A program made the position numbers and the translations under genes. Source: a virus (taxonomy: Duplodnaviria; Heunggongvirae; Uroviricota; Caudoviricetes). From it: a stretch of 64,000 nt of DNA. Under the pieces are notes generated by a model. The model made no database searches, was not told where the DNA came from, and saw only the letters and a list, made by a program, of their open reading frames with translations. Where the stretch lies: positions 231,832 to 295,831 of IMG/VR virus record IMGVR_UViG_3300023179_004209; one strand, 5' to 3'. Shown piece by piece: positions 23,605 through 50,880 of the stretch (position 1 is the stretch's first letter; every line of letters starts with the position of its first letter).

Positions 23605-23688
23605 ATTTATAGGGGGGGAGGGGTACCCCCAATAAATAAATAATAAAAAATTAATTGGTTAGATTGTTTGCTTATATTTATAAGCAAT

Positions 23689-24033
23689 ATGACTAAAGAA
23701 CAATTAAAATCATTGATTAGAGAATGTGTTTGCGAAATCCAACAATCATTGGAAGAAAAGAAACAAAAGAAAAAGGAAGCTCCTAAAGCACCAGAACCAA
23801 AAGCTGCAGCAAAACCAGCTCCAGTAAAGAAATTGGTAAAGAAACCAGTTAAAAAGAATTTGGCAAAGGTAGCACCACCAAAGGATAAATTGACCACATT
23901 TGACGCAGTTCAATTGGCAAGAAGAGCAGCTGATGCAGAAAAGAGAGGCAACAAACAAGCTGCTAAGGATTTGAACTTGGCTAAGCAAGCAGCTAACTAT
24001 ATGTTAAAGACTGGTAAGACCAAGGTAGATTAA
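23689..24033 (+). CDS. histone-H1-like Lys/Ala/Pro-rich DNA-binding protein with propeptide-like N-terminus MTKEQLKSLIRE
   Basis: KAPEPKAAAKPAPVKKLVKKPVKK low-complexity basic region; start adjusted to ATG after TATATTTATA. Confidence 0.55.
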   Translation: MTKEQLKSLIRECVCEIQQSLEEKKQKKKEAPKAPEPKAAAKPAPVKKLVKKPVKKNLAKVAPPKDKLTTFDAVQLARRAADAEKRGNKQAAKDLNLAKQAANYMLKTGKTKVD

Positions 24034-24057
24034 TTTCGTTTATATTCATATTGTTTA

Positions 24058-24089
24058 CCGCTTAGATTTAAAAGTCTAAGCGGTTTTTT
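24058..24089 (+). terminator. Rho-independent terminator
   Basis: CCGCTTAGA..TCTAAGCGG + TTTTTT. Confidence 0.7.
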
Positions 24090-24215
24090 ATTATTTATAA
24101 TAAGTCCTGTTTTTATTACTATATTTATATAAACTAAAAATTGACATTGTTCTGTTTCCATAATTTGTTATTAATTTTAATTGTCAATAAATGTAACAAT
24201 AAAAGGAAATAAATT

Positions 24216-25991
24216 ATGGCAATCAATATTTTTACACATATACGTAGAGGTTTATATGATAATGTTTACAATTGTATAGAAAAAGAAAAGGTGGATGTCA
24301 ATCAAAGAGATGATGACACTGGCAATCCACCACTGGTTGTTGCGGTAGAAGAAAACCAAATAGAAATAGTCAGATTACTATTAAACCACGGTGCTGATGC
24401 CAATTGTAAAGATTGGACCAGTAAAAATACCGCATTGGATGTAGCTGAACAAAAAGGTTTCAAAAATATTGCAGAAGTATTACAACAAAGAGGTGCAAAA
24501 TACAGTAGTGGTAGTAGTTTCCATTTAGCTGCAAAGAATGGTGATATCGTTTCTATCGAAGAAATGTTGAATAAAGGATGTGATATCAATGAAGTTGACG
24601 CAGGTAAAGGTTGGACTGCTCTACATTACGCTGTTAATTATGGACAAAAACACTTGGTTGAATATTTGATTATAAGAGGTGCAGATGTCAACAAGAAAGA
24701 TTTCTTGGGTAAAAACAATCCTATTGATGTATTATCCAACACCAATAGAGGTGAAATTGTTAAATTATTGAATAAATACGGTGCTAAATCCGCAGGTGGT
24801 GTTAGTATTCATTTCTGCGCAGAAACTGGTGATTTTGAAGGTGTACAATCATTCTTTGATAAAGATGGTAAAGTTAATGGTAGAGATGAAAAGAATGGAT
24901 GGATGCCATTACATTATGCCGTTAACGCTAACGATGTTGATATGGTGGAGTTTTTGGTACATTTGGGAGCAAATGTTAACGGTGCAGATTTTAAAGGTGA
25001 AATTGCTCCGTTAGACATTGCATTCAAGACTGGGAATGTAGAAATGCAAACATATCTACAATCCAAAGGTGCGCAAAGAAAGAAGAAACATGATACTGGT
25101 GGTGGTGGCAAAGATGTAACCATCTATATTACAGAAGAAGTCAAGAAACAAATTGCAATGTTTATTGAAAAGCGTGAAAAAGAAGAAGCTGCAATAAAGA
25201 AACATGAAGAAGAACAAACTGCAAAAGAACCTAAAAAGAAAGATGCACCAGCTAAGAAAATTAACTGGAAAGATTTCTTGAAACTTAAAGATATTCCAGT
25301 TGTAGAAAAGAAAGAAGAAAAGAAGGTAGAAGTGGTTAAACCCGTCAAACAAATTGTCAAGAAAGTTGAACAAGTTGATATAGAAGTTAAATCCAGTAGA
25401 TTACAATTGGATGTTGAACAAGAAGGTTACATATTCTTCATGGACATTGTTGCTTATAGTAAGAAAACAACTGATGAACAAAAGAAAGCTTGTAAAGATT
25501 TGGGTGCATTGGTTAAGTCTACAATGCAATATAAAACCGCTAATGCTCTTGAAAAGTTAATTATATTACCTACTGGTGACGGTATGGTATTGGGATTCTT
25601 TACTTATTTGGAAGATGCAATGAATTGTGCTATTGCTATAGCTAAAGCAGTAAAGGATAGACCAGATTTACAAATGAGAATGGGTGTACATTGTGGATCA
25701 GTAATTCCAATGGAAGACATCAATGGTAATCTTAACATTAGTGGTGACGGTATTAATTATGCTCAAAGAGTAATGGATGCGGGTGAAAGTAATCATTTAT
25801 TGGTTAGTTCAGCAGTAATGTTAAAGTATGACCGACCACCATATGTTTTGGTAAACGATCTGGGAGATGTAGTTGTAAAACATGGTGTAGTGATGCATTT
25901 GTATAGTTTACATGGTAGTGACTTTGGCAATAAAGCATTTCCATCTAGTAGAGTGAAGAAGGCAGAACCTACTGATTCAATCAAAAAATAG
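24216..25991 (+). CDS. ankyrin-repeat protein fused to class III nucleotidyl cyclase homology domain
   Basis: about 8 ANK repeats (GADANCKD, TALHYAV, PLHYAV...). K/E-rich linker. CHD motifs FFMDIVAYS, PTGDGMV, MRMGVHCGSV, SGDGINYAQRV. Confidence 0.65.
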   Translation: MAINIFTHIRRGLYDNVYNCIEKEKVDVNQRDDDTGNPPLVVAVEENQIEIVRLLLNHGADANCKDWTSKNTALDVAEQKGFKNIAEVLQQRGAKYSSGSSFHLAAKNGDIVSIEEMLNKGCDINEVDAGKGWTALHYAVNYGQKHLVEYLIIRGADVNKKDFLGKNNPIDVLSNTNRGEIVKLLNKYGAKSAGGVSIHFCAETGDFEGVQSFFDKDGKVNGRDEKNGWMPLHYAVNANDVDMVEFLVHLGANVNGADFKGEIAPLDIAFKTGNVEMQTYLQSKGAQRKKKHDTGGGGKDVTIYITEEVKKQIAMFIEKREKEEAAIKKHEEEQTAKEPKKKDAPAKKINWKDFLKLKDIPVVEKKEEKKVEVVKPVKQIVKKVEQVDIEVKSSRLQLDVEQEGYIFFMDIVAYSKKTTDEQKKACKDLGALVKSTMQYKTANALEKLIILPTGDGMVLGFFTYLEDAMNCAIAIAKAVKDRPDLQMRMGVHCGSVIPMEDINGNLNISGDGINYAQRVMDAGESNHLLVSSAVMLKYDRPPYVLVNDLGDVVVKHGVVMHLYSLHGSDFGNKAFPSSRVKKAEPTDSIKK

Positions 25992-26025
25992 TATATATTA
26001 GTAGATACGGTCATATTTATAATGT

Positions 26026-27453
26026 ATGACCGTATCTGAATTAAAATCATTAATAAAAGAAGTATTACTTGAAGCAGTACCATTTGATAAATCAACTGAT
26101 ATTGAATACGGACTAAAAGCCAAGTATGATGAATTGGGCGATTATACATTTGGTGTAGAATTTGAATTTGAACCTGTTGTAGAAGAACAGAATTTATCAA
26201 TGGATCAAATCATAGAAAAGTTGTCAGAGTTGATGGGATCATCATACCGTTATGATAATGGATTAACTGACGCATATAATTCGTGGGTTGAAGAACAAAG
26301 AAAAGAAGCGGCTTGGAAATGGAACCGATATGGAACCATTGATAATATTGATAGATATGATGAAGAATATGGTCCAATGAGTGTAGATACATTTGATAGT
26401 AGTGTTCCAGAACCAGAAAGAAATGATTTTGATAGTGATGATGAATACAATGAAGCATATGAAAAATATGATGAAGTAAGAAATGAAATAGACAGTGAAT
26501 ATGATCGTTGGGAAAGAAGAAATCGAGGTGATTATGTTGATGAATATTTAAGACTTTTAGCAAGAAGTGGAGAATGGACTGATTTTATTCCAGATAGTGA
26601 AATGACTGTAACTGATATGGAAAATGGTATTGATTCTGCGTATAACTTATTAGATAGTTTGGGTGAAGATGTAAGAAAAGATGATAAACCAGATAAAAAT
26701 ACATGGGCAGTAGGAGAAGACGGACCAAATGTTGAAATAAGAAGCAGACATATGAGACAAACTGGTCATGATTTTAATATTATTTCCAAAGTAGGAAATT
26801 GGGTAAGTGATCAAGCAACACACGGTAAAACTGGGATGCATATTCATATAGGAGTTCCAAGTGATTTTGATATGTTTGATGTATTGGCAATGAGTACATT
26901 GGTTGATGAAAAAGCTATTAAATCTGAAGTAGCCATGGATAGAGATTTTAACAGTTTTGCTAAATTGAGAAGAAGTTTGAGTAACGCAATTTATAACAGA
27001 ATTCATGAATACATGCGTAGACAATCTGAAAATGTACCAAAATCTTTTATTCTTACAAACGCACAAATGAAAGAAATATTATCTGGATTTGATCGTAATC
27101 ATGGTACAAATATTGCAGCATTTAGTGAACATAAAACAATTGAATTTAGATATTTGGGATCTGATATGGCAGATCAAGTATTAAAGTGGATATCTTATTT
27201 CTTGTTGTTACCTCGTATTGCTAAGAGTAGAAATCAGATAAAATTGGATACTATTTATAATGAACAAATAGTAGCTACCAGATTACCAGGCAAGATTAAA
27301 TTTGATTTGTTTAAGACTGATGAACCAAGAACTAGTGTTCCAATGCCAAAAGAACCTGCAGATTTAATCAAACAAAAAGCATTTGAATTACCAAGCAAAT
27401 TGGATATTGCGAAACAACAAGCTGCGGTTAAAAAACAATCGGGAACACAATAA
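26026..27453 (+). CDS. acidic protein with propeptide-like N-terminus MTVSELKSLIKE
   Basis: ORF; D/E-rich first half. Confidence 0.55.
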   Translation: MTVSELKSLIKEVLLEAVPFDKSTDIEYGLKAKYDELGDYTFGVEFEFEPVVEEQNLSMDQIIEKLSELMGSSYRYDNGLTDAYNSWVEEQRKEAAWKWNRYGTIDNIDRYDEEYGPMSVDTFDSSVPEPERNDFDSDDEYNEAYEKYDEVRNEIDSEYDRWERRNRGDYVDEYLRLLARSGEWTDFIPDSEMTVTDMENGIDSAYNLLDSLGEDVRKDDKPDKNTWAVGEDGPNVEIRSRHMRQTGHDFNIISKVGNWVSDQATHGKTGMHIHIGVPSDFDMFDVLAMSTLVDEKAIKSEVAMDRDFNSFAKLRRSLSNAIYNRIHEYMRRQSENVPKSFILTNAQMKEILSGFDRNHGTNIAAFSEHKTIEFRYLGSDMADQVLKWISYFLLLPRIAKSRNQIKLDTIYNEQIVATRLPGKIKFDLFKTDEPRTSVPMPKEPADLIKQKAFELPSKLDIAKQQAAVKKQSGTQ

Positions 27454-27472
27454 TTCTTATATTTATAACAAT

Positions 27473-28936
27473 ATGACATTGTTTGAACATATTTTGATTG
27501 AAGGTAGAGTGGATGATTTTAAGAATTTATTAAAAAATAAGTTCAGCATTGATTATGTTCAAAAGATTATCAATAGAGATACCAGCAAAAACCATAAGAA
27601 TTTGTTATGGATTGGTAAGATACTAAAAACAGAACCAGATATCAATGAAGAAGATTTGTTTAAAAATCTGGAAATATTCAACAAAGTAGCATCATCCACT
27701 GATTTGTATAGTTTTAAAGAGTATAGTACATTTTTGAGTTTCTTACAAAAGAAAAGTAAAGAAGTACAAATGGGTAAGATGGCTCAAATCAAAGCTGGTT
27801 CACGTACAATTAAAGATGATAAAAGATGGTTGGTAGTTGCACCAGAAACACATGATGCAAGTAGATATTTTGGTGGTGGTACCAGCTGGTGTATCAGTAC
27901 AAGCAATGATAGATACTGGAAAGATTATTATTATGCACAAACCATAGTAATGATTAAAGATAGAAGTAAGAAACCAGACAATGACTTGTTCAAAGTTGCC
28001 ATTGTTGGTAATGCCTATGAACAACTTTGGGATACTAGTTTTAGTGATAAGATAGATAAAATCAGAGAATTATCAAAACATGTAGATTTATATAATGTCA
28101 ATGACAATAAATTAAGTGGTGACCAAAAAATTAATTATTTAGGACAATTACCAGAAGATTTAATTGAAGACTTGATGAATTATTTTAATGATGATGATGT
28201 CTATGAAAGACAAACCAATCATTATTATGAACTTGCAAGAGAAAGATATGATGAAGGTGGTAAAGAAGAACTTTTGAAATCATTGTTTAATACTACGGTA
28301 GCGTATTTTGATGCGGATGTTGATTTTCATGCAGATGATTTTGGTGATTTAATGAGCAGACAATTTGCAGATGAAATTCAAGACGGTAATTGGGATGAAT
28401 TTTTAAGTGAACTATGGGGTGCATGTATAACTTATCAAGGTGTAGAGGATGATTCTTTTTATGCTGAAGTAAATACAAGAAATTTCAAAAACTTGATAAG
28501 TGATACCAGTTATGATTTAAATACCTATCTTGATTTAGCCAAAGAAGTATTGAAAAATGAGGATATATCAAATATGGATAACATCATAAAAGATGCGTTG
28601 ATTAAAACATCTGATAATGGTGATCCATATACTGTAATTAAAAGACAAGCAAATCAATTAAAAGATACAAATTATAATGATATAATATTATCATCATTAA
28701 ATGCATATAATGCAAAAAATAATCCTACTTTTATTCAAGGTCAGAGATCTTTGGGACCAGAATTTATGGGTATTGTAAATAAATTTAAACCAAAGAACAT
28801 TGAGGATGTAATTAAAGTGTTGAGTATCAATCCTAGAGCAAAGGATATGATTGATCAGATACAAAGATACAGAAGAGATTTGTATGAATCCAAGAAAAAG
28901 CGGACAATTAAATATAGAGATTTTTACAAATTATGA
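27473..28936 (+). CDS. hypothetical protein (N-terminus MTLFEHILIE)
   Basis: start moved to ATG after TATATTTATAACAAT to avoid 70-nt overlap. Confidence 0.5.
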   Translation: MTLFEHILIEGRVDDFKNLLKNKFSIDYVQKIINRDTSKNHKNLLWIGKILKTEPDINEEDLFKNLEIFNKVASSTDLYSFKEYSTFLSFLQKKSKEVQMGKMAQIKAGSRTIKDDKRWLVVAPETHDASRYFGGGTSWCISTSNDRYWKDYYYAQTIVMIKDRSKKPDNDLFKVAIVGNAYEQLWDTSFSDKIDKIRELSKHVDLYNVNDNKLSGDQKINYLGQLPEDLIEDLMNYFNDDDVYERQTNHYYELARERYDEGGKEELLKSLFNTTVAYFDADVDFHADDFGDLMSRQFADEIQDGNWDEFLSELWGACITYQGVEDDSFYAEVNTRNFKNLISDTSYDLNTYLDLAKEVLKNEDISNMDNIIKDALIKTSDNGDPYTVIKRQANQLKDTNYNDIILSSLNAYNAKNNPTFIQGQRSLGPEFMGIVNKFKPKNIEDVIKVLSINPRAKDMIDQIQRYRRDLYESKKKRTIKYRDFYKL

Positions 28937-29874
28937 ATAACGAAGGTATATCATTGATTGATACAAAGAAAGGTATTCCCAGATTAAATTTTAGATTTGA
29001 CAAAGATTATCCTGAAGATTTTATATCAATTGGTTCTGGAAAGTTCATCCAAAAAAGAACTGGTGATATTAATTTAATTTATTTGGCTCATAAATTCATG
29101 AGTGAAAAAGAGGTGATGGATCAATTGTCATTTTATATAAATCAAACAGACATTAATGCAAATCCTACCATTAATGCTAAAATTGCTAGATACCCAGATT
29201 TATTTTTCACATATAAAAAAGAAATAAGAAAAGCAATTAAAAACTTAAGTGCTACTGATTATATATCATTTACTGGTAAAAATATAGAACATGTTAAAAC
29301 AATGATACATAGAGGTATACTTGATTTTAACAATAGAATAAACTATGTTAAAGATTATGATTTGATTATTACTGTTCCTAGTCAAGCTCCGTTAAATCAA
29401 ATGATAATTAATGAATTTAAGAGTTATATAAATCCAGAAAAAACTTTGGTAATAGATGACTTTTTATTAAAAAACCGTGTTAAAGATATTAGATGGGATA
29501 ACAATGAATATTTGGAAGTAGAAGAAAGAGAAGGAAAAAATCCTGATCAAATTGCCAAAGTAAGAAAAATGAGAGATATTATGTTGAAAAGTATATATTC
29601 AAAAGGCAATCTAAATAAAGACTTTCAAGTAAAGATGGTAACCAAATCCAGTTTAAGAAGATATTTTCATAAGTTCATGCACATTAATGATAAACTAGAT
29701 GAACAATTATTTTTAAAGATTAACAATGGTAAAATACTAATTATTGATGATAGCTTTGGTTCAGGAGTAACTATGAAAGAATCATCAAGAGCGATTAAAC
29801 ATTTAAATCCTAAAACAGTTGACGCATTCATTCTGCTCCACGATTACGCACCAACAGCTAAAAAAACTGGTTGA
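28933..29874 (+). CDS. hypothetical protein
   Basis: ORF. Confidence 0.55.
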   Translation: MNNEGISLIDTKKGIPRLNFRFDKDYPEDFISIGSGKFIQKRTGDINLIYLAHKFMSEKEVMDQLSFYINQTDINANPTINAKIARYPDLFFTYKKEIRKAIKNLSATDYISFTGKNIEHVKTMIHRGILDFNNRINYVKDYDLIITVPSQAPLNQMIINEFKSYINPEKTLVIDDFLLKNRVKDIRWDNNEYLEVEEREGKNPDQIAKVRKMRDIMLKSIYSKGNLNKDFQVKMVTKSSLRRYFHKFMHINDKLDEQLFLKINNGKILIIDDSFGSGVTMKESSRAIKHLNPKTVDAFILLHDYAPTAKKTG

Positions 29875-29898
29875 CTTTTAAAAAAAGTATGTTAAAGT
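29871..29898 (+). promoter_or_regulatory. promoter TTGACT-N16-TAAAGT
   Basis: -35 overlaps stop of previous gene. Confidence 0.5.
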
Positions 29899-29906
29899 AA
29901 AAAAGT

Positions 29907-30086
29907 ATGAAGAACACTACAAATACATTGATTGAAAATCTAAAGAAACAAATCAAACTCCGTAAAGAAACACATACAGAATATGGTTATTTATATGCAA
30001 TTAAAACAGTCGCTGATGCAATTCTGCCATATGATGCTAGCAAATCTATTAAGCCAGCTATTATTCCTTCAGAATTTAACTTCTAA
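29907..30086 (+). CDS. 59-aa hypothetical protein
   Basis: first ATG after promoter; below track cutoff. Confidence 0.3.
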   Translation: MKNTTNTLIENLKKQIKLRKETHTEYGYLYAIKTVADAILPYDASKSIKPAIIPSEFNF

Positions 30087-30185
30087 ACTTTTCTGAATTA
30101 AAATTAACAGGAAGATTTTATAAAAACTAATTATTAAGCGCAACAAGCGCATTGAATAATTTTAAATATAATATTAATATAGAAT

Positions 30186-30329
30186 ATGGGAAAGAGCTAT
30201 AAAGACAAGTATAAGCGCAACAATAGTTTTGATAAACGCAGCAAGCGCATTAAGCAGGGAAAATCTAAATTTAAGTTTTCTGTAGAAGATGTTGGTAAGA
30301 AGCCAGTTTGGGATGATGAACAGGAGTAA
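30186..30329 (+). CDS. 47-aa highly basic (K/R-rich) peptide
   Basis: ORF below cutoff; flanked by AAGCGCAACAA repeats. Confidence 0.25.
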   Translation: MGKSYKDKYKRNNSFDKRSKRIKQGKSKFKFSVEDVGKKPVWDDEQE

Positions 30330-30402
30330 TTATATACTTGACAACTTACTAATTTTGTTATAGTATTGTAACGTAATATAAACTTAATATACAGAAATTA
30401 AA

Positions 30403-30717
30403 ATGGATACATTTACAGGATCGGTTGATGCGTTATTAGACCATTGTTCAAAACTAGATATCAAAGAAGTTGAAGAACAAATTAAATTAGATGAAAAACA
30501 AGAATGTCTCTCTATTATTATGAGAGATTGTGATTGTTCCCTTGAGGAAGCGGAACAAATTTATAATGATATTGCGTTAAATGAAGTAAAAGATACAATT
30601 GATCAATTGGTAAAAGAAGGAATTGTAGAAGTATCTGGATATAATGATGATGGTGAACCGTTGTTTACATTAACAGAACTTGGACGACAAATTCAAAAAG
30701 AACTAGGAAATAAGTAA
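30403..30717 (+). CDS. acidic hypothetical protein
   Basis: ORF followed by terminator. Confidence 0.5.
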   Translation: MDTFTGSVDALLDHCSKLDIKEVEEQIKLDEKQECLSIIMRDCDCSLEEAEQIYNDIALNEVKDTIDQLVKEGIVEVSGYNDDGEPLFTLTELGRQIQKELGNK

Positions 30718-30723
30718 ACTTTA

Positions 30724-30751
30724 ACCCGCTTAATATTAAGCGGGTTTTTTA
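30724..30751 (+). terminator. Rho-independent terminator ACCCGCTTAAT..ATTAAGCGGGT + TTTTTT
   Basis: perfect 11-bp palindrome and T-run. Confidence 0.75.
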
Positions 30752-30776
30752 TTATATTCATAATATTTATACAGAT

Positions 30777-32114
30777 ATGGATAAGAACTTAAAGAATGTA
30801 ATTTTAAAATTGGTCGAAGAAGTAATGACTGAAGCTCCTGCACCAGTTATTGAACCACCAACCAAACCAGCAGAAAGACCACCTGCTCCATCCAAGCCAG
30901 ATAAAAGACCCAATCCATTAAAACCAACAAAACCTGGCATTGCACCAAGACCAAAGGCTTTAAGTCACGATGTACAAGCATTCTTAAATCAAAGAAAGGG
31001 TTTAACTGAAAAAATTGATACGGGTGAGGATATACCAGATTTTATTGATCCAAGCAAAAGAGCCAAAATTGAAAATGAAAAGGACTATGTAGAACAAATT
31101 CTACCAGATTTAGGTCCAGAAGCAGATAGATATTTAGAAATTATTACCAGTGAAAGTTATCAACAAAATGTAAAAAGAGTAGCTTACTATCTTGGTATTA
31201 GTGTAGGTGAAATTCAATCCAAGTTTCCAAACTATCCAACAATGGTTATGTTGGCATTTAAAACACTAAATGATATCAAAAGAGCAGAATCTAGTTTAAA
31301 GAAACAATTAGAACAAATTGCAGTAGATGTAGTATTAGATTTACCAGAAAATAAGTTTATTAAACAATTAGTAGAAGATGGTGACATTATCGTTGATGCC
31401 AAATTAGGCAATGCTGACTTAACAAAAGCAGTTACCGCAGACAAAATGGATGAAGAAATGGATAATGGTCTAACAGTTGCAGAAAATCTTAATATGCAAC
31501 TGAACACTATGTTGAGTGGTGACACTGATGGTAAATTAAGAAGAACATTGGCTAACTATATGACACAAGGTGATGCAGTAAATAAATTATTCTTATTTAA
31601 TACTGTTTCAGATAAGTTAGATACAATGAGTCCAAATCTATCAAAAAAATACGGTGTATTAGCCGCAATTACACAAATAGGATATTATTTAACGCCGGAT
31701 TTTCCAATTACAAGTGATATCGTAAATATGGCTGCTGTAGGCAGTGAACAAGTGGTTCCAACTGGTGATAAATATACAATCAAAGCCAGAGCAATGACAT
31801 TTCCTTATCTAGTACATGAATTGGTAAAAGGAATTGGTGATTATATCAGTATGGATGTTGCTTCACAAGAAGAATTGGATACTGAAACAATGGACGATGA
31901 AATCAAACAGATTATGGCAGGTCCAGCATTGGAAATGAAGTTGAGAAAGTTGATTCCAGCCGATAAAATTGAATATTTGCCTATAATCAAGAAACTATTT
32001 TATAAGTTGCCAATTGAAACCATCAAGGATATATTACTTGGAGGTATGAAAGCTCAATCTTTCATGAACGGTTTGATAAAACAAGCCGAAGAAAGCATGG
32101 AAGATGTAGATTAA
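30777..32114 (+). CDS. protein with propeptide-like N-terminus (MDKNLKNVILKLVEE) and Pro-rich linker
   Basis: ORF; PAPVIEPPTKPAERPPAPSKPDKRPNPLKPTKPGIAPRPK. Confidence 0.55.
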   Translation: MDKNLKNVILKLVEEVMTEAPAPVIEPPTKPAERPPAPSKPDKRPNPLKPTKPGIAPRPKALSHDVQAFLNQRKGLTEKIDTGEDIPDFIDPSKRAKIENEKDYVEQILPDLGPEADRYLEIITSESYQQNVKRVAYYLGISVGEIQSKFPNYPTMVMLAFKTLNDIKRAESSLKKQLEQIAVDVVLDLPENKFIKQLVEDGDIIVDAKLGNADLTKAVTADKMDEEMDNGLTVAENLNMQLNTMLSGDTDGKLRRTLANYMTQGDAVNKLFLFNTVSDKLDTMSPNLSKKYGVLAAITQIGYYLTPDFPITSDIVNMAAVGSEQVVPTGDKYTIKARAMTFPYLVHELVKGIGDYISMDVASQEELDTETMDDEIKQIMAGPALEMKLRKLIPADKIEYLPIIKKLFYKLPIETIKDILLGGMKAQSFMNGLIKQAEESMEDVD

Positions 32115-32119
32115 AATGA

Positions 32120-32419
32120 ATGAAATTCAATCATCAATATTTGGGATATGAATCAGAAGAACAAAGAGATTTATATTCTTGTAATATATTAGATGATTAT
32201 GGAGTTCATGTTGGGTTTTGTAAGTATTATAAACCGTTGTTAGAGTTTGAAACGGTTTATATTGAATTCATTAATATAACTTATGAACACCGTAGAAGAG
32301 GTCATGCAACCGCAATGGTTAAAGAACTTCAACGAATGTATTATTTGAAATGGGATGGTAGATTAAGTGTAGACGGTAGGAAGTGGTATAATTCATTGAT
32401 GGAAAGACAAATAGTATAA
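32120..32419 (+). CDS. small GNAT-like acetyltransferase (tentative)
   Basis: HRRRGHATAMVKEL resembles GNAT motif A. Confidence 0.35.
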   Translation: MKFNHQYLGYESEEQRDLYSCNILDDYGVHVGFCKYYKPLLEFETVYIEFINITYEHRRRGHATAMVKELQRMYYLKWDGRLSVDGRKWYNSLMERQIV

Positions 32420-32431
32420 TATTTATACTAC

Positions 32432-33199
32432 ATGAAAGTCATCAAAGGAGACGTAAACTTAGATTGTTTAAATTTGAGAGAAATACCGGAAATTATCAAG
32501 GATGTTTCAATTGAAGGATCATTAAGTTTATATAATAACAATTTGCGTAGTCTTAAAAATTGTCCTAAAAAAATTATACGTCATTTAAATGTGGCTAATA
32601 ATAGAAGTTTACGTTCATTGGTTGGTGGACCAGAAGAAGTAGGTGCTATTGATGTACATAATTGTAATCTAACAAGTTTAGAAGGATTTCCAAAGATAGT
32701 TAAATCTGGCAATTTTTTAGGTGGTCGTGTAGATGTTAGTGGTAACAAATTGACTTCATTGGTTGGTTTACCAGAAGAATTGTCGGAGTTAGTGATATAT
32801 AATAATCCTGGTCTTAAAACATTGCAGGGTTGTCCTAAAATTATCCGTGGTGGTTTTGAAGCATTATGGTTACCAATTACCAATATGATTGGCGGTCCAA
32901 CTGTAATATATGATGATTTGTTGTTGTATGATACAGAAATAAATTCGTTGGAAGGATTTCCAAAAAAAGTTGGTGGCAACATTTTTCTAGGCAATACACC
33001 ACTTGGTAGTATATTATTTCCTAACAGAGTAACACCAGAAACAAAGAAAAAATCTGAGGAATTAATAAATAAAATACACAGTATATGTGATATTGGAGGT
33101 GGTATATACAGAACTGCAGATGATATTGAAGAAGAAAATCCAGAAATAGAAATGGATGATTATGAACCAGATGAATATGGAGGATTTCGCAGAGTATGA
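32432..33199 (+). CDS. LRR protein paralog 1 (LPX-type 20-22-aa repeats NxLTSLxGxP)
   Basis: about 9 repeats, e.g. NNLRSLKNCPKKI, CNLTSLEGFPKIV, NKLTSLVGLPEEL. Confidence 0.6.
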   Translation: MKVIKGDVNLDCLNLREIPEIIKDVSIEGSLSLYNNNLRSLKNCPKKIIRHLNVANNRSLRSLVGGPEEVGAIDVHNCNLTSLEGFPKIVKSGNFLGGRVDVSGNKLTSLVGLPEELSELVIYNNPGLKTLQGCPKIIRGGFEALWLPITNMIGGPTVIYDDLLLYDTEINSLEGFPKKVGGNIFLGNTPLGSILFPNRVTPETKKKSEELINKIHSICDIGGGIYRTADDIEEENPEIEMDDYEPDEYGGFRRV

Positions 33200-33921
33200 A
33201 ACGCAAACATTTTTATGATAATGTAGAATTAGATCATCTATTTCTAAAAGAAATACCAGATAATATTGCAATGTATGCGTGTCATGGTTTATATGATATA
33301 TCTGATAATAAACTTACATCATTAAAAAATTGTCCGTCATTTGTAAAAGATAATTTTAATTGCAGCCTTAATAACTTAACATCATTAAGAGATGGTCCAC
33401 AAGAAGTTCAAGGAAGTTATAATTGTGCTGATAATAAAATAACATCATTGGATGGTATTGCAAAAATTATTGGAGGAGGTGTAGATGTATCATATAATCA
33501 ATTGTCATCATTACAAGGTATTCCAACACTAAAATCTAATAGATTATTAAAAGTGAGTGATAATAAAATTACAAGTTTGATTGGATATGGATTTGAGTCA
33601 ATTGAATTTAGTTCATTTGATGTAACCTCAAATAAATTAACATCATTGGCAGGTAGTCCATATAGAGTGAATGCAAATTATGAATGTGATGCTAATCCAA
33701 TTGAAAACTTTGTGGGTGGTCCTAAATTTGTTGGAAGAAATTTTTATGCAACAAGTTTACGAAGTTTAAAATCAATTGAAGGATTACCACATGTAATTGA
33801 AGGTAGATTATTTATCAGTATGATTGATATGCGTAGAATATTTCCTGGTCTTGCTGACGGAAACATAATAAAAGAAATTAGATCTATCAGCAACATTATT
33901 GGTGGTATAGCTACAATATAA
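33196..33921 (+). CDS. LRR protein paralog 2
   Basis: NKLTSLKNCPSFV, NNLTSLRDGPQEV, NKITSLDGIAKII... Confidence 0.6.
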   Translation: MKRKHFYDNVELDHLFLKEIPDNIAMYACHGLYDISDNKLTSLKNCPSFVKDNFNCSLNNLTSLRDGPQEVQGSYNCADNKITSLDGIAKIIGGGVDVSYNQLSSLQGIPTLKSNRLLKVSDNKITSLIGYGFESIEFSSFDVTSNKLTSLAGSPYRVNANYECDANPIENFVGGPKFVGRNFYATSLRSLKSIEGLPHVIEGRLFISMIDMRRIFPGLADGNIIKEIRSISNIIGGIATI

Positions 33922-33925
33922 AATT

Positions 33926-34657
33926 ATGAAAAAAATAGAAGGATATGTAGATTTAAGTGATTATGACTTCAAAGAAGTACCGTCAATATTAAATGATGTT
34001 AGTATTGAAGGTATTCTAAATATAGCTGATAATCGCATAAAAAATTTAAACAACTTTCCTTTAAATTGTGAATCTGTTTATTTGTCAGGAAATCCATTAA
34101 CTAGTTTAGTTGGTATAAAACAAAAGTATATAAGGGATTTGGAAGCAAGTAGAACAAAGATTCAAAATTTGGAAGGATGTCCTGAAATTGTATCACAACT
34201 TTTAATAAAAAACTGTGCATCATTTAATAGTTTAAAAGGAACTTTAAAAGAAATCTCAGGTCAACCCGCATATTTGACTATAAGAGGTACTTCATTACAA
34301 ACATTAGAATATTGTCCAAAAACAAATAATAATGTTAGTTTTCGTCTTGATTTTAATAAAATAACATCATTAGTTGGTCTGCCAAATAAATGTCGTGATC
34401 TACATATCAGTGATAATAACTTAACTAGTCTAGTTGGATGTCCTCAACATATCAAGGGTGATTTTTATTGTAATAATAACAATTTGAAAACATTTGACGG
34501 ATTTCCCAAAGTAGTTGAAGGTATCATATATATGACACTTTCACCTATGTATGACAATCCATTGATGATGCAATCATATTATTTTGAAAAAGAAATTAGA
34601 AAAAGATGTAAAGTTTATGGTATATCATTGACTGAACCAAAAAATGTACAAATTTAA
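33926..34657 (+). CDS. LRR protein paralog 3
   Basis: same repeat type; N-terminal DFKEVPSILNDVSIEG shared with paralogs 1 and 4. Confidence 0.6.
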   Translation: MKKIEGYVDLSDYDFKEVPSILNDVSIEGILNIADNRIKNLNNFPLNCESVYLSGNPLTSLVGIKQKYIRDLEASRTKIQNLEGCPEIVSQLLIKNCASFNSLKGTLKEISGQPAYLTIRGTSLQTLEYCPKTNNNVSFRLDFNKITSLVGLPNKCRDLHISDNNLTSLVGCPQHIKGDFYCNNNNLKTFDGFPKVVEGIIYMTLSPMYDNPLMMQSYYFEKEIRKRCKVYGISLTEPKNVQI

Positions 34658-34668
34658 TAACTGATAAT

Positions 34669-35349
34669 ATGGGAAAATATATAAAAGGAGATGTAACATT
34701 ATCTGGACTTCATTTAAAGAAGCTGCCTGAAATATTAAAGGATTTAACAATTGAAGGCAGTATATTTTTGAGTGGAAATCAGCTCACTACATTAGAAAAT
34801 TTCCCGGAACTTGTAACGGAAAATATAATGTTAGGTTCAAATCCATTGGTTAGTTTAAAAGGTATAAAACAAACCGCTGTATCAACATTATCCATAGATA
34901 ACGGTAAATTTAGTAATTTGGAAGGATGTCCATCACACATTAATAAATTAAATATAGTGGGTAATAGTAACTTAAAAAGTCTAAAGGGACTTGCACCTCA
35001 TTTAATATCTTTAAAAATTATAGGTACACCATTGCAAACAATGGAATATTGCAATCAAAATATTCACGGTACATATCATCTTGAATTTAATTTATTAAAA
35101 TCTCTGGTTGGAATGCCAAAACAATGTAGAGAACTAAAAATAGGATTCAATCAATTAGAAAATTTTATTGGTGCTCCTGAAGTTGTACTTGGAGATTTTC
35201 AATGTTATCATAATCCAATACTATCATTGGAAGGATTTCCAAAATATGCAAAAAGAGTGATTATTAATAATTTTATGAAAGACAGAGAACTTACAAGAAG
35301 AGATGTAGCAAGAGTGTGTGAAGCAGAAGAAATTGTCATTTCAGTATAA
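34669..35349 (+). CDS. LRR protein paralog 4
   Basis: LHLKKLPEILKDLTIEGS; NQLTTLENFPELV etc. Confidence 0.6.
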   Translation: MGKYIKGDVTLSGLHLKKLPEILKDLTIEGSIFLSGNQLTTLENFPELVTENIMLGSNPLVSLKGIKQTAVSTLSIDNGKFSNLEGCPSHINKLNIVGNSNLKSLKGLAPHLISLKIIGTPLQTMEYCNQNIHGTYHLEFNLLKSLVGMPKQCRELKIGFNQLENFIGAPEVVLGDFQCYHNPILSLEGFPKYAKRVIINNFMKDRELTRRDVARVCEAEEIVISV

Positions 35350-35380
35350 TAATAAATTTCAAACTAATATTTATAAACAT

Positions 35381-36334
35381 ATGAAACAACTATTGACAGA
35401 AGCCAATCTAACAAATTTTTCAGAATTACTAACTGCCATTAACAAAGTATTGGACAACAAAGACATTCCACAATTTGCTGGTAGTGAAACCAATAAAGTA
35501 AGAGATTGGTTTGTAAAACAATATGTAAAAGCAATCAAAGAAGATGAAGTTGACCTACAATCATCCATCACACCACACAAATATAGTGAAGGTGAACCAG
35601 AATGGATGAATAAATCTGACATCATGGACTTTAGTGGTGAATTACCAGAAGATGTAGTTGATGAAATTGGTCATACAGTAGACTATTTTGCTACACTTGA
35701 CGCAAATGACTTGAGAAAAATCTACAAAGAACCATATAGAGTCATCAAACAAAAGGTACAAGAATGGGACAGAGAATTGGCATCAACATCAACTGATACC
35801 AAGAAGGAAGATAATCTAAAGAAAACCTTAGTCAAGGGTACTGATTATAAGATTATCAAGGAAGTATCTGGATTAAAGTGGGTAAAACTACTTACACCAA
35901 AATCAAAAGATGTTGAAGGTGATGTAATGGGACATTGTGTAGGTGGTGAAGGTTATGAAAACAGAGACATTTATTCATTATGGGATAATAGAGATAGATC
36001 TCATGTGACTATTGAAGCTGATGATAACAGAAAGACTATTCAACAAATCAAGGGTAAACAAAATAGAGAACCAGTTGAAAAATATCAACCAGCTTGTGTT
36101 GAATTCGTGGCTAATGCAATGTTGCAAGGATACAGAGTACAAGGTGACGGTGAAAACATTGGTATGATCAAACATAACAGTGAATATCACTTTGATGAAT
36201 TAAATGTATTACCAGAAAAATTCAGAAACAAAGAAATATTTAGAACTTGGGTAGATAAAATTTTCCCAACTGAAATATTCCCTAAACAACAAAAAGCTAT
36301 TGCTGATATTGCAAAAAGAATTGTTGAAGTATAA
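35381..36334 (+). CDS. hypothetical protein (N-terminus MKQLLTE)
   Basis: start moved to ATG after TAATATTTATAAACAT. Confidence 0.5.
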   Translation: MKQLLTEANLTNFSELLTAINKVLDNKDIPQFAGSETNKVRDWFVKQYVKAIKEDEVDLQSSITPHKYSEGEPEWMNKSDIMDFSGELPEDVVDEIGHTVDYFATLDANDLRKIYKEPYRVIKQKVQEWDRELASTSTDTKKEDNLKKTLVKGTDYKIIKEVSGLKWVKLLTPKSKDVEGDVMGHCVGGEGYENRDIYSLWDNRDRSHVTIEADDNRKTIQQIKGKQNREPVEKYQPACVEFVANAMLQGYRVQGDGENIGMIKHNSEYHFDELNVLPEKFRNKEIFRTWVDKIFPTEIFPKQQKAIADIAKRIVEV

Positions 36335-36378
36335 TATAATTAATTTGTTATGTTTGTATAATAATATATAATATTGTT

Positions 36379-36759
36379 ATGCATATACAATATCAGACCG
36401 TAACATTAGAAGGAATAAAGAAAACCGCAGATATAATGTATGGTATATACGAAATGGAGCATTCTGACAATGCTCCATTTAAGCGTTGGGTATGGACCGA
36501 TAGTGTATTTGGTGGGGTGTTACAAAAAATAGATACTATTGATTTTAGAATCAAGAGTCCTATTGACAATCTTTTAATAGTAAATGATAGTGTAAAGTTT
36601 TATCTTAAAAAGGATATACTCTGTAATTTGAGAATAGTAACTACTAACTATACAGAGTTAAAGATGAAATTGGATGAAAAATATAAAATAGATAATGACC
36701 CGAGAGATTTAGGAATTCTTATATTTGGTGTTAGCATTGGTTCATCTGAATTATTCTAA
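36379..36759 (+). CDS. hypothetical protein
   Basis: ORF. Confidence 0.5.
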   Translation: MHIQYQTVTLEGIKKTADIMYGIYEMEHSDNAPFKRWVWTDSVFGGVLQKIDTIDFRIKSPIDNLLIVNDSVKFYLKKDILCNLRIVTTNYTELKMKLDEKYKIDNDPRDLGILIFGVSIGSSELF

Positions 36760-36791
36760 TTTAATAATAAATCTATCATATTTATATCTAT

Positions 36792-37640
36792 ATGATTAAA
36801 TTGATAGATTTACTAAATGAAACGCCTATAGGTACATATACAACCATAGGTGACTTTGAAAAAGGTGCATCATATAAAGATCCAAGAGATAGAGCATCTG
36901 TTAGTCATCCAGTAACAGTACAAAAAGTCAAGGATATGTTGAAAAATACAATTGTTGACTTTGATTTTTACTTTGTTAACAAGCCTGGATTAAGACAATT
37001 TAGTGAAAAAGGTAAAGTACCATATGAATTCATTTTCAAACCAGTTCCAGAAGGTTTAGGATTGACACACGAAGAATTGGGTGATAGAAGTATAAACAGT
37101 GATAATATCACTGTATTCTTTGTAAGTAATACCGCTGCGGATAAAATTCCAATGACTGCGTGGACTATTGTTCATAGAGTTGGTCACGCAATGAATAGAA
37201 CACCACAGTTTCAAGAATATACAAACTGGTTGGATAAACAATTTGATGAATTACTTGCTTTGTATGGTAAACAAAAAGTAAATACCAGATATAGTTTTGG
37301 TGATAATGATTATAAAAGATCAAGAGTTTATGATTTAGCTAAGGGTAGATTATTCAATCATATAGGTACAATGCGTAGTGCTAGAGAAGGTAGAATACAT
37401 CTTAGACCATATGAATTTTACTATGAATTGTTTGTACAATATTTGAAAGACGGTGAAATTAAATTCAATCCATTGACCAAAAACATTTTGGTTGGTTATG
37501 GACCATATGGTAGTAAAAGTATTGCTTATACACAAAATTTAGCTGACGCACAAGAACATTTAAATATGATTGCAAATACAATACCATATTATGTTGAAGA
37601 TGTATTGAGAGCGAATGCTGGTGATATATTTGTAATGTAA
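36792..37640 (+). CDS. protein with N-terminal decapeptide MIKLIDLLNE (propeptide candidate 1)
   Basis: ORF; shares only the first 10 aa with the next three genes. Confidence 0.6.
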   Translation: MIKLIDLLNETPIGTYTTIGDFEKGASYKDPRDRASVSHPVTVQKVKDMLKNTIVDFDFYFVNKPGLRQFSEKGKVPYEFIFKPVPEGLGLTHEELGDRSINSDNITVFFVSNTAADKIPMTAWTIVHRVGHAMNRTPQFQEYTNWLDKQFDELLALYGKQKVNTRYSFGDNDYKRSRVYDLAKGRLFNHIGTMRSAREGRIHLRPYEFYYELFVQYLKDGEIKFNPLTKNILVGYGPYGSKSIAYTQNLADAQEHLNMIANTIPYYVEDVLRANAGDIFVM

Positions 37641-37641
37641 T

Positions 37642-37983
37642 ATGATTAAATTGATTGACATATTATTTGAAAATAAGGGTAACTATGTTTATCATTTGAC
37701 TAAGTTATCTAATTTAGACAGTATTAAAAAACACGGATTAAGACCTGCTATACCTGTCGATATGGATACTGAAGAAGAAGGTGTTTATTTATTTAAAACT
37801 GAAGAAGATGCGGAAGATGCATTACAAAATTGGTATGGTGATAGATACGATGATACAGAAGAGTTTGCAATATTGACCATAAAGACAGATGGTTTGAGAT
37901 TATTTTCAACATTAGCAGACTATGAATATGTTTCTTATGAAACAATACCGTCGTCAAATATAGTTAATATGGAAAAAATATGA
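37642..37983 (+). CDS. protein with N-terminal MIKLIDILFE (propeptide candidate 2)
   Basis: ORF. Confidence 0.6.
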   Translation: MIKLIDILFENKGNYVYHLTKLSNLDSIKKHGLRPAIPVDMDTEEEGVYLFKTEEDAEDALQNWYGDRYDDTEEFAILTIKTDGLRLFSTLADYEYVSYETIPSSNIVNMEKI

Positions 37984-38519
37984 TTAAACTCAAAGACATA
38001 TTGAAAGAGACAATCAATGATAGTATTGATTATGGATATCATTATACCAGCAAGAAAAATTATGAAAAGATAAAGACTGAAGGGTTGAAAATAAATCAGT
38101 CTATGCATATGACACTCAGAAATAATGAATGGATGTTAGATGCTTATGGTAAGATTCCTATATTTTTGGGTACAAAACCTCTTACACAATATGGTCCAAG
38201 AATACCAGTAGGTAGTGAATATGATTGGGTTTTATTAAAAGTAGATGTAAATGGTCTTGATATTTCTGCGGATATTGGTACAATGATTGACTTTGGTGCA
38301 TATATTGAAAAGGATGGTTTTTGGTTCAAACAAAAACCTTTTTGGTTAAATGATACTGAATTTAATTATGATGATTTGCAAGGCAGTGATAAATTGGATT
38401 TATATAAAGTAATAAGACAAACAAAATCGTTTGTAGTATTAGAAGATATAAGTTTGGATAGAATAAAACAGATAGATTATAAAGGAAAACTTTCAATCAA
38501 AAACTTTTTTAATATATAA
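37980..38519 (+). CDS. protein with N-terminal MIKLKDILKE (propeptide candidate 3)
   Basis: ORF. Confidence 0.6.
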   Translation: MIKLKDILKETINDSIDYGYHYTSKKNYEKIKTEGLKINQSMHMTLRNNEWMLDAYGKIPIFLGTKPLTQYGPRIPVGSEYDWVLLKVDVNGLDISADIGTMIDFGAYIEKDGFWFKQKPFWLNDTEFNYDDLQGSDKLDLYKVIRQTKSFVVLEDISLDRIKQIDYKGKLSIKNFFNI

Positions 38520-39019
38520 TGATTAAATTATCTCAATTAATAAATGAATTAAAATTGACAAATGATATGCGTATTCATATGTCAAAGAATCCATTTGAAT
38601 TGGAACAAAGAACATTCAAACAAAACATTGGAATGAAACCATTTGGATTTTGGTATGGTTTTGGTAGTGAATGGATTGACTGGACACGAAGTGAAGTGCC
38701 GGATTGGGTTGGTAAATACATTTATAGTGTTGATATTGGAAATTCCAATGTATTACAGATAAATACCCATATGGAATTGATGCAATTTAACCGTGAATAT
38801 CAATCCAATATAAGTGGTATTGGACATAGAAGACTAGAAGGTGAAGTAATTGACTGGAAAAAAGTTGCTGATAAGTATGATGGTATAGAAATCAATCCAT
38901 ATCAATTTGAAGCTAGATATCAATATTTATGGTATTATGGTTGGGATATTGCAAGTGGGTGTATATGGAATTTAAAGAATGTTAAACTAAAGTTGTTAAC
39001 TGATAAAGGAATAGAATGA
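38519..39019 (+). CDS. protein with N-terminal MIKLSQLINE (propeptide candidate 4)
   Basis: ORF. Confidence 0.6.
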   Translation: MIKLSQLINELKLTNDMRIHMSKNPFELEQRTFKQNIGMKPFGFWYGFGSEWIDWTRSEVPDWVGKYIYSVDIGNSNVLQINTHMELMQFNREYQSNISGIGHRRLEGEVIDWKKVADKYDGIEINPYQFEARYQYLWYYGWDIASGCIWNLKNVKLKLLTDKGIE

Positions 39020-39537
39020 ACTTGATTACAGAAAATAGACACAGTGAATTTGGTTGTTTAATGGCTATAGTTGAACCAACCAGAGGACCACACATCATTA
39101 AATTTGGTAAAACAATAGTACCACCACAAATTCTTTATACTGATCCAAATGATAGTAGCTATGGTTATGATGATGAACCACACATTACAGCTAAGTATGG
39201 TTATTCTCCTGACTTAACAAGAGCTAATTTAGCCACCATTCTACAAGGTATCAAACCATTTATTGTTAAACTTACTGGTTTAACCCAATTTCAAAATGAA
39301 AAGTATGATGTAGTCAAGTTTGATGTAGAAAAGAATGAGATATTATCTGAAATAAGACGAAGATGCGATTGTTATAAGAATGAGGATAAATACCCAGATT
39401 ACAAACCACATATGACATTGGCTTATGTACAAAAAGGTAAGTTTCCTCATATTAAAGAAGGATTAAACATATCTGTACCAGTCACCAGATTCAAATATAG
39501 TGGTCAAGACGGTAAAAAATTATACATCAATTTGTAA
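39016..39537 (+). CDS. 2H phosphoesterase superfamily protein (LigT / cyclic phosphodiesterase-like)
   Basis: two H-x-T-x motifs (EPHITAKY and KPHMTLAY) about 85 aa apart. Confidence 0.6.
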   Translation: MNLITENRHSEFGCLMAIVEPTRGPHIIKFGKTIVPPQILYTDPNDSSYGYDDEPHITAKYGYSPDLTRANLATILQGIKPFIVKLTGLTQFQNEKYDVVKFDVEKNEILSEIRRRCDCYKNEDKYPDYKPHMTLAYVQKGKFPHIKEGLNISVPVTRFKYSGQDGKKLYINL

Positions 39538-39586
39538 TATATAAAAAGTGCTCGTTTTAATTATAAAAAGTATATTTATAATTACT

Positions 39587-45606: not shown

Positions 45607-45668
45607 TTTTTTGAACATATTTATAAATTTGTATATATTTATATGTTCAAACTTCTCTAAAAAAGAAG

Positions 45669-49655: not shown

Positions 49656-49730
49656 AGTTCAATAAAGTTATATTTTACATTTATAAATATAAATGAACTA
49701 ATTGAAAATCGTTAAAATTATTCAATAAAA

Positions 49731-50793: not shown

Positions 50794-50880
50794 AAATTAT
50801 AAAATTCCTTTCGGCATATAAATATTGACAAAAGTTCAAATCGTGTTAGTATTTAATAACAATTAATAAATATAAACTAT

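Follow-up and report, generated by a model that had tools for sequence, protein, structure and literature searches.

The stretch of DNA analysed here (the window) comprises 64 kb of the IMG/VR virus record IMGVR_UViG_3300023179_004209, which belongs to the Caudoviricetes. It is ~32% GC, its + strand holds almost all of the coding sequence, and 10.7% of it is non-coding. The window carries a tRNA cluster and genes for RNA ligase 1, a Band_7 protein, a helicase, and ankyrin-cyclase, amidoligase-like and PcfJ-like proteins, together with mobile genes (homing endonucleases and an IS200/605-type transposase). Ahead of many start codons stands an AT-rich octamer, TATTTATA, usually preceded by an A, which an initial annotation of the sequence had put forward as a candidate late promoter. 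This element and the genes behind it are our subject.

The DNA comes from a large myovirus-type phage that has not been cultured. Two ENA metagenome contigs (161 kb and 42 kb), recognized by identical proteins and the same coverage, supplied flanks from the same phage, 8.8 kb on the left and 9.7 kb on the right, so that its readable part amounts to ~82 kb in all. Megablast of 11.5 kb of the window against cultured phages gave no match, and tblastn with RnlA, Band_7, rIIA and the virion protein gave distant matches only; because of the latter we conclude that there is no close cultured relative. Relatives at 77–90% protein identity are common in IMG/VR, on contigs of up to 171 kb, and encode rIIA, tail fibres, NAMPT and thymidylate synthase (TS).

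An enriched octamer abuts start codons

The octamer with its preceding base, (A)TATTTATA, is a real, conserved, promoter-like element. Both strands of the window together hold 29 copies, compared with 12.2 ± 3.2 after dinucleotide shuffling, where none of 100 shuffled sequences reached that number; 21 are on the + strand and 8 on the minus strand, where Markov models of order 1–4 predict 4.9–6.9 per strand. The form linked to a start codon, TATTTATA-N3-6-ATG, occurs 11 times on the + strand and not at all on the minus strand, with 0.5–0.7 expected and a maximum of 4 under the Markov models. Against the AT-rich background, a comparison that the initial annotation had named as able to refute its proposal, the frequency thus lies above both shuffle and Markov expectation. 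Copies are concentrated between genes, 23 of 29 falling in the non-coding tenth of the window (binomial p = 1e-17), and an unbiased k-mer count over the 30 nt upstream of starts returned TATTTATA as the top-enriched 8-mer (17 of 172 open reading frames [ORFs], ~20-fold).

We aligned 27 intergenic sites and computed their information profile. In 22 of them an A precedes the 8-mer; otherwise only the 8-mer is conserved. Nothing else upstream exceeds 0.65 bit in this alignment, and neither a -35 element nor an activator box was found, in agreement with the -35-less promoter originally proposed. The spacer between motif and ATG is 4 nt in five genes, 5 nt in six, 6 nt in two, and 7 and 9 nt in one each, with a mode of 4–5 nt. 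All 15 motif-adjacent genes start with ATG and leave no room for a Shine-Dalgarno (SD) sequence. A second group of sites lies 17–44 nt from the ATG, and two tandem copies precede gene 24216 from farther away; where the motif is distant, the leader often contains an SD-like AAAGGAA (24216, 58387, 50793 and 56869). SD-like AAGGA is found in a minority of genes only, counting all ORFs of the window and flanks, and the start context T-ATG-A is genome-wide, T occupying -1 and A occupying +4 in 71% each of the genes that are not adjacent to a promoter.

The sites are listed in Table 1. Ten of the eleven genes for which the motif had been reported immediately upstream of the ATG do have it there, at 3–6 nt (23689, 26026, 27473, 30777, 32432, 35381, 36792, 51777, 57162 and 59259); at the eleventh, 58387, the motif is present, and the spacing of 2–8 nt is not, the SD-like AAAGGAAAA lying between motif and start. 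Nor is the motif confined to the 23.7–39 kb block to which it had been assigned: a further site precedes 39587, minus-strand copies stand upstream of the few minus-strand genes, and the same-phage flanks carry it at -6803, -5130, 66665 and 72747. Public gene calls match 10 of 11 start codons; the other is 39587, whose longer start is backed by a lipoprotein signal peptide.

The motif precedes the first genes of operons, and six sites lie 6–18 nt downstream of strong intrinsic terminators. Three near-identical terminator-plus-promoter cassettes of ~50 bp occur at 57105-57156, 58312-58358 and 59204-59253; their layout, CCCC(A/G)CTATTAATTTAGTGGGG-T-run-TATTTATA, resembles a duplicated regulatory module.

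A second promoter class and the geometry of leaders

Early-type genes of the window are preceded by a different, sigma70-like element, (A-rich)-TTGAC(T/A)TT-N16/17-(TG)nTAnnnT, here called class I. The pattern TTGAC[TA]-N15-18-TAnnnT occurs 39 times on the + strand and 3 times on the minus strand (7 expected), and is followed by an ATG within 4–10 nt in 20 cases, compared with 1.2 expected. The upstream region is often A-rich, a TG often precedes the -10 box, and the -10 hexamer ends 6 nt (eight genes) or 8–9 nt (seven genes) before the ATG. Class I precedes small ORFs, the dCMP deaminase operon, the genes for RNA ligases 1 (RnlA) and 2 (Rnl2), a PNK-like kinase, SpoU and the helicase, and tRNAs. 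The two classes partition by gene function, class I serving early-type genes and tRNAs and the motif virion and capsid-targeted genes; the DNA ligase gene has both.

Each class places its predicted transcription start at or next to the start codon. The class I -10 spacing equals the sigma70 start distance, which puts the start on the A of the ATG or 2–3 nt before it. For the motif, two registers were considered: the T4 late box TATAAATA lies at -13 to -6 (PMC1524935), a register that with a 5-nt spacer sets +1 on the A of the ATG, and the flavobacterial sigmaA box TAnnTTTG lies at -12 to -5 (PMC9723704), which with the same spacer leaves a leader of 3 nt. Both classes would therefore yield leaderless or near-leaderless first cistrons. 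Very short leaders, to judge from these spacings, look like a phage-wide property that class I has in common, not one special to the motif.

Leaderless messages have precedents. The lambda cI mRNA made from PRM is leaderless; the middle and late transcripts of Thermus phage P23-45 are said to be so too, and actinobacterial leaderless genes are reportedly predicted by a TANNNT ~7 nt before the start. In these systems, as here, a -10-type box is fixed 5–9 nt before the ATG and there is no SD sequence; here, in contrast, two promoter classes of one large phage show this geometry. In Flavobacteria only 5.5% of mRNAs are leaderless (PMC9723704).

Virion and capsid-targeting-like genes behind the motif

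Proteins encoded behind the motif tend to share the N-terminus M(T)K..LK.LI(K/R)E, present in 8 of 15 motif-led proteins vs 7 of 137 others (odds ratio 21, p = 5e-6, with a regular expression chosen post hoc). The link between motif and propeptide-like N-termini that had been pointed out earlier thus stands. These N-termini are similar to the capsid-targeting sequences of phage T4, including the (L/I)xE site after which the T4 sequences are cleaved (PMC9026906). They head the products of 23689, 26026, 30777, 59259 and 36792-39019, and in the flanks those of -6788 and -7121 (minus strand); the cargo behind them includes a Lys/Ala/Pro-rich protein, the amidoligase-like protein and a 445-aa Pro-rich protein. 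The putative promoter and the capsid-targeting-like leader together form a shared DNA cassette.

Recognizable virion genes also lie behind the motif, as expected of the virion-associated class in the initial annotation. In the source phage, one motif-led operon encodes a phrog_1645 virion structural protein (E = 3e-73), whose homologues are annotated as virion proteins in cyanophages, and another includes an Ig/Hoc-like protein. In the relative L177 a tail-fibre gene is headed by TATTTATA-N4-ATG. In L158 and L178, which form a more distant group, the motif directly adjoins genes for a 2002-aa collagen-like tail fibre, a 1135-aa tape-measure-like protein and a 409-aa adaptor-like protein, and lies 20 nt before a tail-tube gene; baseplate operons of other relatives, described below, are motif-led as well.

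Conservation is seen at the level of single sites. The motif is retained at 8 orthologous sites in relatives; before 72759 it reads AATATTTATA and is retained in 11 of 12 distinct relatives. At 30777, the similarity of relative L003 begins exactly at the motif, and the sequence upstream is unrelated. One further locus, L014 (IMGVR_UViG_3300044633_000899, a 296-kb contig, 91.9-101.7 kb), has five TATTTATA-N3-4-ATG sites on one strand within 9.8 kb; it has no detectable homology to the window, and its motif-led proteins begin MNLQ... and have no known function.

A gp55-like sigma factor in motif-bearing phages

A profile of seven gp55 proteins matched ORFs in two loci that had been retrieved solely by the motif pattern. 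The collection-wide motif scan yielded mostly chance matches among the matches listed, and the sigma-bearing clade was caught by luck. Among the matches listed, the family so found is present in 8 of 119 loci. Its members have 230–310 aa, longer than T4 gp55 and with an extra C-terminal helical domain, and contain an invariant KA(Y/F)SYF and a C-terminal FNKKALYIYIRE motif. Among PHROG entries they match 'late sigma transcription factor' with E = 1e-4; a match to Pfam Sigma70_r2 stays below threshold. Foldseek searches with a model of the protein returned almost only sigma factors, with weak E-values and mainly two-domain. At least 7,973 proteins belong to the family, almost all of them annotated as 'hypothetical', and it occurs on more than 570 IMG/VR contigs, some of 200–480 kb.

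The motif co-occurs with this gene in related phages. In 80 IMG/VR loci centred on the sigma-like gene, motif-N2-7-ATG occurs 58 times on the gene strand vs 4 on the opposite strand; a second set of 80 loci, this time around the adjoining PhoH-like gene and with the sigma gene present in about half, gives 126 vs 15. On one side the sigma gene is flanked by the PhoH-like gene, on the other by a baseplate operon that encodes a gp25-type wedge protein. In L288, L368 and Flavobacterium phage immuto it immediately precedes a baseplate operon headed by the motif. The first gene of the baseplate operon has the motif or a one-base variant of it (caaTATTTATAgtcATG in L288, TATTTATT-N4-ATG in L368, and similarly in L087 and L230). 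L288 and L177 belong to the same IMG/VR contig, which has tail-fibre operon genes in common with the left flank of the source phage and a DHFR-TS-small-gene block in common with its closest relatives. Loci of the L230 type were also considered as a tie to the group of the source phage and rejected, the only gene in common being a sugar epimerase.

Two cultured phages encode family members, Flavobacterium phage vB_FspM_immuto and Microcystis phage Mel-JY01. In immuto, gATATTTATA stands 13 nt before gp117, the head of the baseplate-to-tail-fibre operon, right after the sigma-like gp118.

A probable divergent relative of the T4 late promoter

We interpret (A)TATTTATA as a phage late promoter, a -10 element without a -35 that would be read by a gp55-like sigma factor and give near-leaderless mRNAs; we put the probability of this reading at roughly 70%. 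The initial late-promoter interpretation is to that extent supported by the sequence comparisons, from which we infer the sigma that reads the motif, the late timing and the positions of transcript starts; 'late' could mean middle-to-late. Under this model, host RNA polymerase core together with a phage-encoded sigma like T4 gp55 would recognize the element without a -35 box and so drive late or virion-associated genes, encoding capsid-targeted, virion and decoration proteins and, in relatives, tail-fibre, tail-tube and baseplate operons. From the modal spacer of 4–5 nt, transcription would begin at the A of the ATG or at most ~3 nt upstream, and the first cistron would be translated from a leaderless or near-leaderless mRNA. 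The programme would have two T4-like stages, with host-type TTGACTT promoters early and (A)TATTTATA promoters late.

T4 late promoters, which are served by gp55 with gp33 and the gp45 clamp, offer the closest likeness: they too consist of an 8-bp AT-rich box in the -10 region without a -35, placed before virion and capsid-targeted genes. In gene orientation the two boxes are identical at 6 of 8 positions, and the sigma-like protein of the relatives has gp55 as its best structural and its sole PDB sequence match. Before the early-type genes stands the TTGACTT class instead of the motif, as would be required of a T4-type late promoter. The differences are a pair of central bases (TT here, AA in T4), the extra preceding A, and the position of the box, which here abuts the start codon; T4 late mRNAs have SD-containing leaders.

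The resemblance to T4 drawn in the initial annotation therefore holds in the sense of those six positions and not for the T4 consensus itself. TATTTATA is the exact reverse complement of TATAAATA, but on the coding strand TATAAATA is not enriched (8 observed, 6.4–7.4 expected); since its core is absent from the sites and unenriched, the box would be a non-canonical variant of the T4 late promoter. Variation of this kind is on record among T4-like phages, in which the late box is CTAAATA in Aeh1 and has A/T at -13 in RB49, KVP40 and S-PM2 (PMC1524935): like the present element, the gp55-type box drifts between lineages while position and function are kept. None of these described variants has the TATTTATA core or the position next to the start codon, and a literature search for TATTTATA as a phage promoter found nothing relevant.

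Several observations weigh against this interpretation. The gp55-like sigma expected in the rest of the genome is present in related motif-using phages and was not found in the 82 kb of the phage itself, by PHROG scans of nearly all ORFs of at least 70 aa, tblastn with T4 gp55, or a hidden Markov model (HMM) of seven gp55 members. The loci of the closest (SpoU-group) relatives show no sigma-like gene either, the gp55 HMM having scanned 2.3 Mb of loci. The link to a sigma factor therefore rests on family-level relatives. No gp33-like gene turned up in the window, its 18 kb of flanks or the SpoU-group loci, no search having been aimed at gp33 or gp45. The sole PDB match of the sigma-like family, to T4 gp55, is nearly full length but weak (E = 0.018), and hhalign gives the comparison with gp55 a probability of 26–73%, again weak. 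The C-terminal helical domain of the model and its two-domain Foldseek matches make a -35-like contact possible. At the orthologous site of immuto the leader has 13 nt, and the 7-mer shows no overall enrichment in that locus. A 4-nt spacer under the strict T4 register would start transcription inside the ATG, so the register must flex. Finally, many motif-led genes encode enzymes or effectors (amidoligase, PcfJ-like, LRR, DNA ligase) and not classic structural proteins.

Alternative explanations

The alternative that survives best, itself unlikely, is an ordinary host-type box, for instance a form of TAnnTTTG, the -7 box of Bacteroidota sigmaA, that reads (T)ATATTTA, with host holoenzyme at work throughout infection and no late class. 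Taken with the two preceding bases, ~45% of sites give TATATTTA, which agrees with TAnnTTTG at 7 of 8 positions, and the flavobacterial box occupies -12 to -5 (PMC9723704). In its AT-richness and scarcity of SD sequences the phage resembles Bacteroidota, and immuto, a cultured phage that encodes a member of the sigma family and has the motif ahead of its baseplate operon, infects Flavobacterium. The overlap with the full sigmaA promoter (-33 TTTG, -7 TAnnTTTG) is nevertheless partial. Among the 27 aligned sites, the combination of TAnnTTTG with a TTTG ~19–21 nt upstream (consensus from PMC9723704) is not found: the motif has no TTG-like element at -33, an A always takes the place of the G, and beyond it another TA is conserved. 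A host-type reading also has to contend with the separate, abundant TTGAC class before early-type genes and tRNAs, and with the partition of the two classes by gene function.

Less likely again is a motif that acts in RNA, either as an A/U-rich element that enhances translation of, or recruits ribosomes to, genes that lack an SD sequence, or as a RegA-like repressor operator. The tight distance to the AUG (3–6 nt) and the paucity of SD sequences in the phage would fit such a role. However, six sites lie directly after intrinsic terminators, so that the upstream transcript would rarely include them and a new transcript must begin at the motif. At least seven copies stand 17–116 nt from a start codon, several with an SD-like sequence of their own; the motif tolerates a variable distance to the ATG when such a sequence is present. 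Orthologues of 36792 and 59259 (86–95% identical) lack the motif when they lie within operons, as in L002 and L003, where the orthologue of 36792 is operon-internal and the motif before it is absent; genes at 90–95% identity are thus translated without the motif, which is therefore not needed for translation. The element is moreover an exact 9-mer, unlike degenerate A/U enhancers, and the class I -10 boxes have the same geometry. Terminators, variable distance in the presence of an SD-like sequence and motif-less operon orthologues together make a promoter, and not an RNA signal, the best-supported model of TATTTATA that sequence comparison offers.

We give marginally less room than to an RNA signal to a promoter for a phage-encoded RNA polymerase (RNAP), whether single-subunit or of the multisubunit phiKZ/AR9 type. 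The early promoters of the virion RNAP in the AR9/phiKZ group are, like the motif, exact AT-rich blocks with the start fixed a few nucleotides downstream (AAATATATATTAT-N6-G, with the transcription start site [TSS] 6 nt downstream; PMC5312081), and the source phage is large, its 161-kb and 42-kb contigs having equal coverage. Those promoters differ in serving early genes, in their multisubunit phage RNAP and in their leaders, which are 26–491 nt long in AR9 (PMC5312081) and 31–40 nt in phiKZ according to the literature; neither of these TSS-mapped jumbo phages has leaderless transcripts, unlike the geometry here. Neither the ~82 kb of the phage nor the loci of its relatives yielded an RNAP-like gene, the canonical sigma70-like promoters argue for host RNAP, and motif-bearing relatives encode a gp55-like sigma instead.

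An origin as a mere by-product of AT-rich composition (~32% GC) and the common T-ATG-A start context (T at -1 in 71% of all genes) can practically be dismissed, given a 3–4-fold excess over an order-4 Markov model, more than 15-fold for the ATG-linked form, strand asymmetry, intergenic concentration, and conservation where flanks diverge. Two further candidates were rejected: an archaeal TATA box, since the motif is too near the ATG and sigma70-like promoters are present, and a late motif of the poxvirus/African swine fever virus type, the window being clearly that of a tailed phage with tRNAs, intrinsic terminators and tail genes.

Implications

Beyond the late promoter itself we tentatively sketch a wider scheme, which we regard as possible and somewhat less probable than not. 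A large, essentially unannotated clade of AT-rich aquatic myoviruses, represented by the sigma homologues and IMG/VR contigs counted above, might use a divergent gp55-like sigma with the promoter (A)TATTTAT(A/T). In the lineage of the window, early (TTGACTT-N16/17-TAnnnT) and late promoters would both be fused to start codons and most primary transcripts would be leaderless, a phage-wide strategy unlike that of TSS-mapped jumbo phages and possibly of the host. The late promoter with a capsid-targeting leader of ~12 codons would be a portable cassette that puts effectors (ankyrin-cyclase, amidoligase, LRR, PcfJ-like and ParB-like) under late control and loads their products into the capsid for injection.

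The proposed pairing gives widespread uncultured large phages a testable promoter and sigma factor, the putative late regulator being annotated at present as 'hypothetical protein' only, and Flavobacterium phage vB_FspM_immuto provides a cultured entry point. The motif may be usable for calling late operons and true start codons in such genomes. If the predicted starts are right, a large phage expresses much of its genome from leaderless mRNAs, which raises the question of how host ribosomes handle them and whether translation is selective for the phage. The shared promoter and capsid-targeting cassette suggests a route by which injected effector proteins could be recruited and delivered.

Relatives, host and other features of the window

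A stepwise search outward through IMG/VR relatives met the same accessory region again, rearranged (SpoU, NAMPT, TS and an inverted helicase block). L137, L156 and L133/L190 (77–90% SpoU identity) have the same gene blocks as the window in other order and orientation; in these close relatives the virion/tail-fibre operon adjoins SpoU and the helicase block is inverted. This shuffling indicates that the accessory half of these genomes is often rearranged. L053 and L118 were rejected as relatives, having only single mobile genes in common with the phage.

Low SD use, AT-richness and the Flavobacterium phage relative suggest a Bacteroidota host; the class I promoters, which resemble canonical sigma70 promoters, point the other way. 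A scan of 185,579 species genomes with the TnpB-like transposase and RnlA gave no match, and the transposase (IS200/605-type, 10045-11211, minus strand) has no close homologue in them. On contigs L371–L373, which carry the sigma homologue P0200, the region ~1 kb ahead of the sigma gene encodes a 112-aa phage protein with a match to Pfam GldL_N. GldL is a gliding/type IX secretion protein of Bacteroidota, a hint that this branch of the sigma-bearing clade has its host in that phylum.

Table 1. Promoter-like sites of the window, by class and strand.
Feature	Position	Strand	Context
Class II motif (cttaTATTTATA)	23675..23682	+	6 nt before ATG 23689 (114 aa, N-terminus MTKEQLKSLIRE); conserved in L002
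Two motif copies	24092-24099, 24122-24129	+	Directly after terminator 24057-24084; 116 and 86 nt upstream of ankyrin-cyclase gene 24216, whose leader contains AAAGGAAA
Motif	26014..26021	+	4 nt before ATG 26026 (amidoligase-like, N-terminus MTVSELKSLIKE)
Motif	27460..27467	+	5 nt before ATG 27473 (487 aa)
Motif	30764..30771	+	5 nt before ATG 30777 (445 aa); 18 nt after terminator 30723-30746
Motif	32420..32427	+	4 nt before ATG 32432, first of four tandem LRR-like paralogues
Motif	35368..35375	+	5 nt before ATG 35381 (PcfJ-like)
Motif	36779..36786	+	5 nt before ATG 36792, first of four 'MIKL...' paralogues
Motif	39573..39580	+	6 nt before ATG 39587 (lipoprotein-like, 318 aa); beyond the earlier list
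Two motif copies	45618..45643	+	Within inverted repeat just after tRNA-Arg; function uncertain
Two overlapping motif copies	51760..51773	+	9 and 3 nt before ATG 51777; directly after terminator 51729-51754
Motif	57149..57156	+	5 nt before ATG 57162; 17 nt after terminator 57105-57132
Motif	58351..58358	+	28 nt before ATG 58387, leader with SD-like AAAGGAAAA; after terminator 58312-58333
Motif	59246..59253	+	5 nt before ATG 59259 (N-terminus MTKTQLKQLIKE); after terminator 59204-59229
Two motif copies	11216..11236 (11236/11223)	-	Upstream of IS200/605-type transposase gene (10045-11184/11211)
Motif	49682..49689	-	26 nt before HNH-like gene start 49655; after minus-strand terminator 49757-49730
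Motif	50817..50824	-	23 nt before gene start 50793; leader with GAAAGGAA; operon runs into Ig/Hoc-like 49772-50395
Motif	52397..52404	-	17 nt before gene start 52379
Class I example, TTGACT-N16-TAAATT	55639..55666	+	Ends 6 nt before ATG of RNA ligase 1 gene 55673
Other class I sites	21678, 45233, 52435, 53536, 54520, 60107, 61272	+	
Class I before tRNAs	45479, 45824, 46971, 48321	+	

Two single motif sites are followed by tandem runs of four paralogues each, at 32432-35349 (LRR-like, ~230–255 aa) and at 36792-39019 (MIKL starts). The neighbouring genes 57162-58283 and 58387-59181 have the N-terminal peptide LNETFQKHL.LL in common; in the product of 57162-58283 it recurs near the C-terminus, and the protein also contains an IIDGHHRW (ParB/Srx-like) motif.

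Unusually long tRNA calls (87–109 nt) were made at 47166-47252, 47259-47350, 48898-48990 and 49001-49109. ARAGORN and Rfam disagree on some of the calls: two are 'tRNA-Ile(tat)' with the anticodon at position 32, and the 109-nt tRNA is found in Rfam only; introns within them or miscalling are possible explanations. An HNH endonuclease gene (47661-48350) lies within the tRNA cluster.

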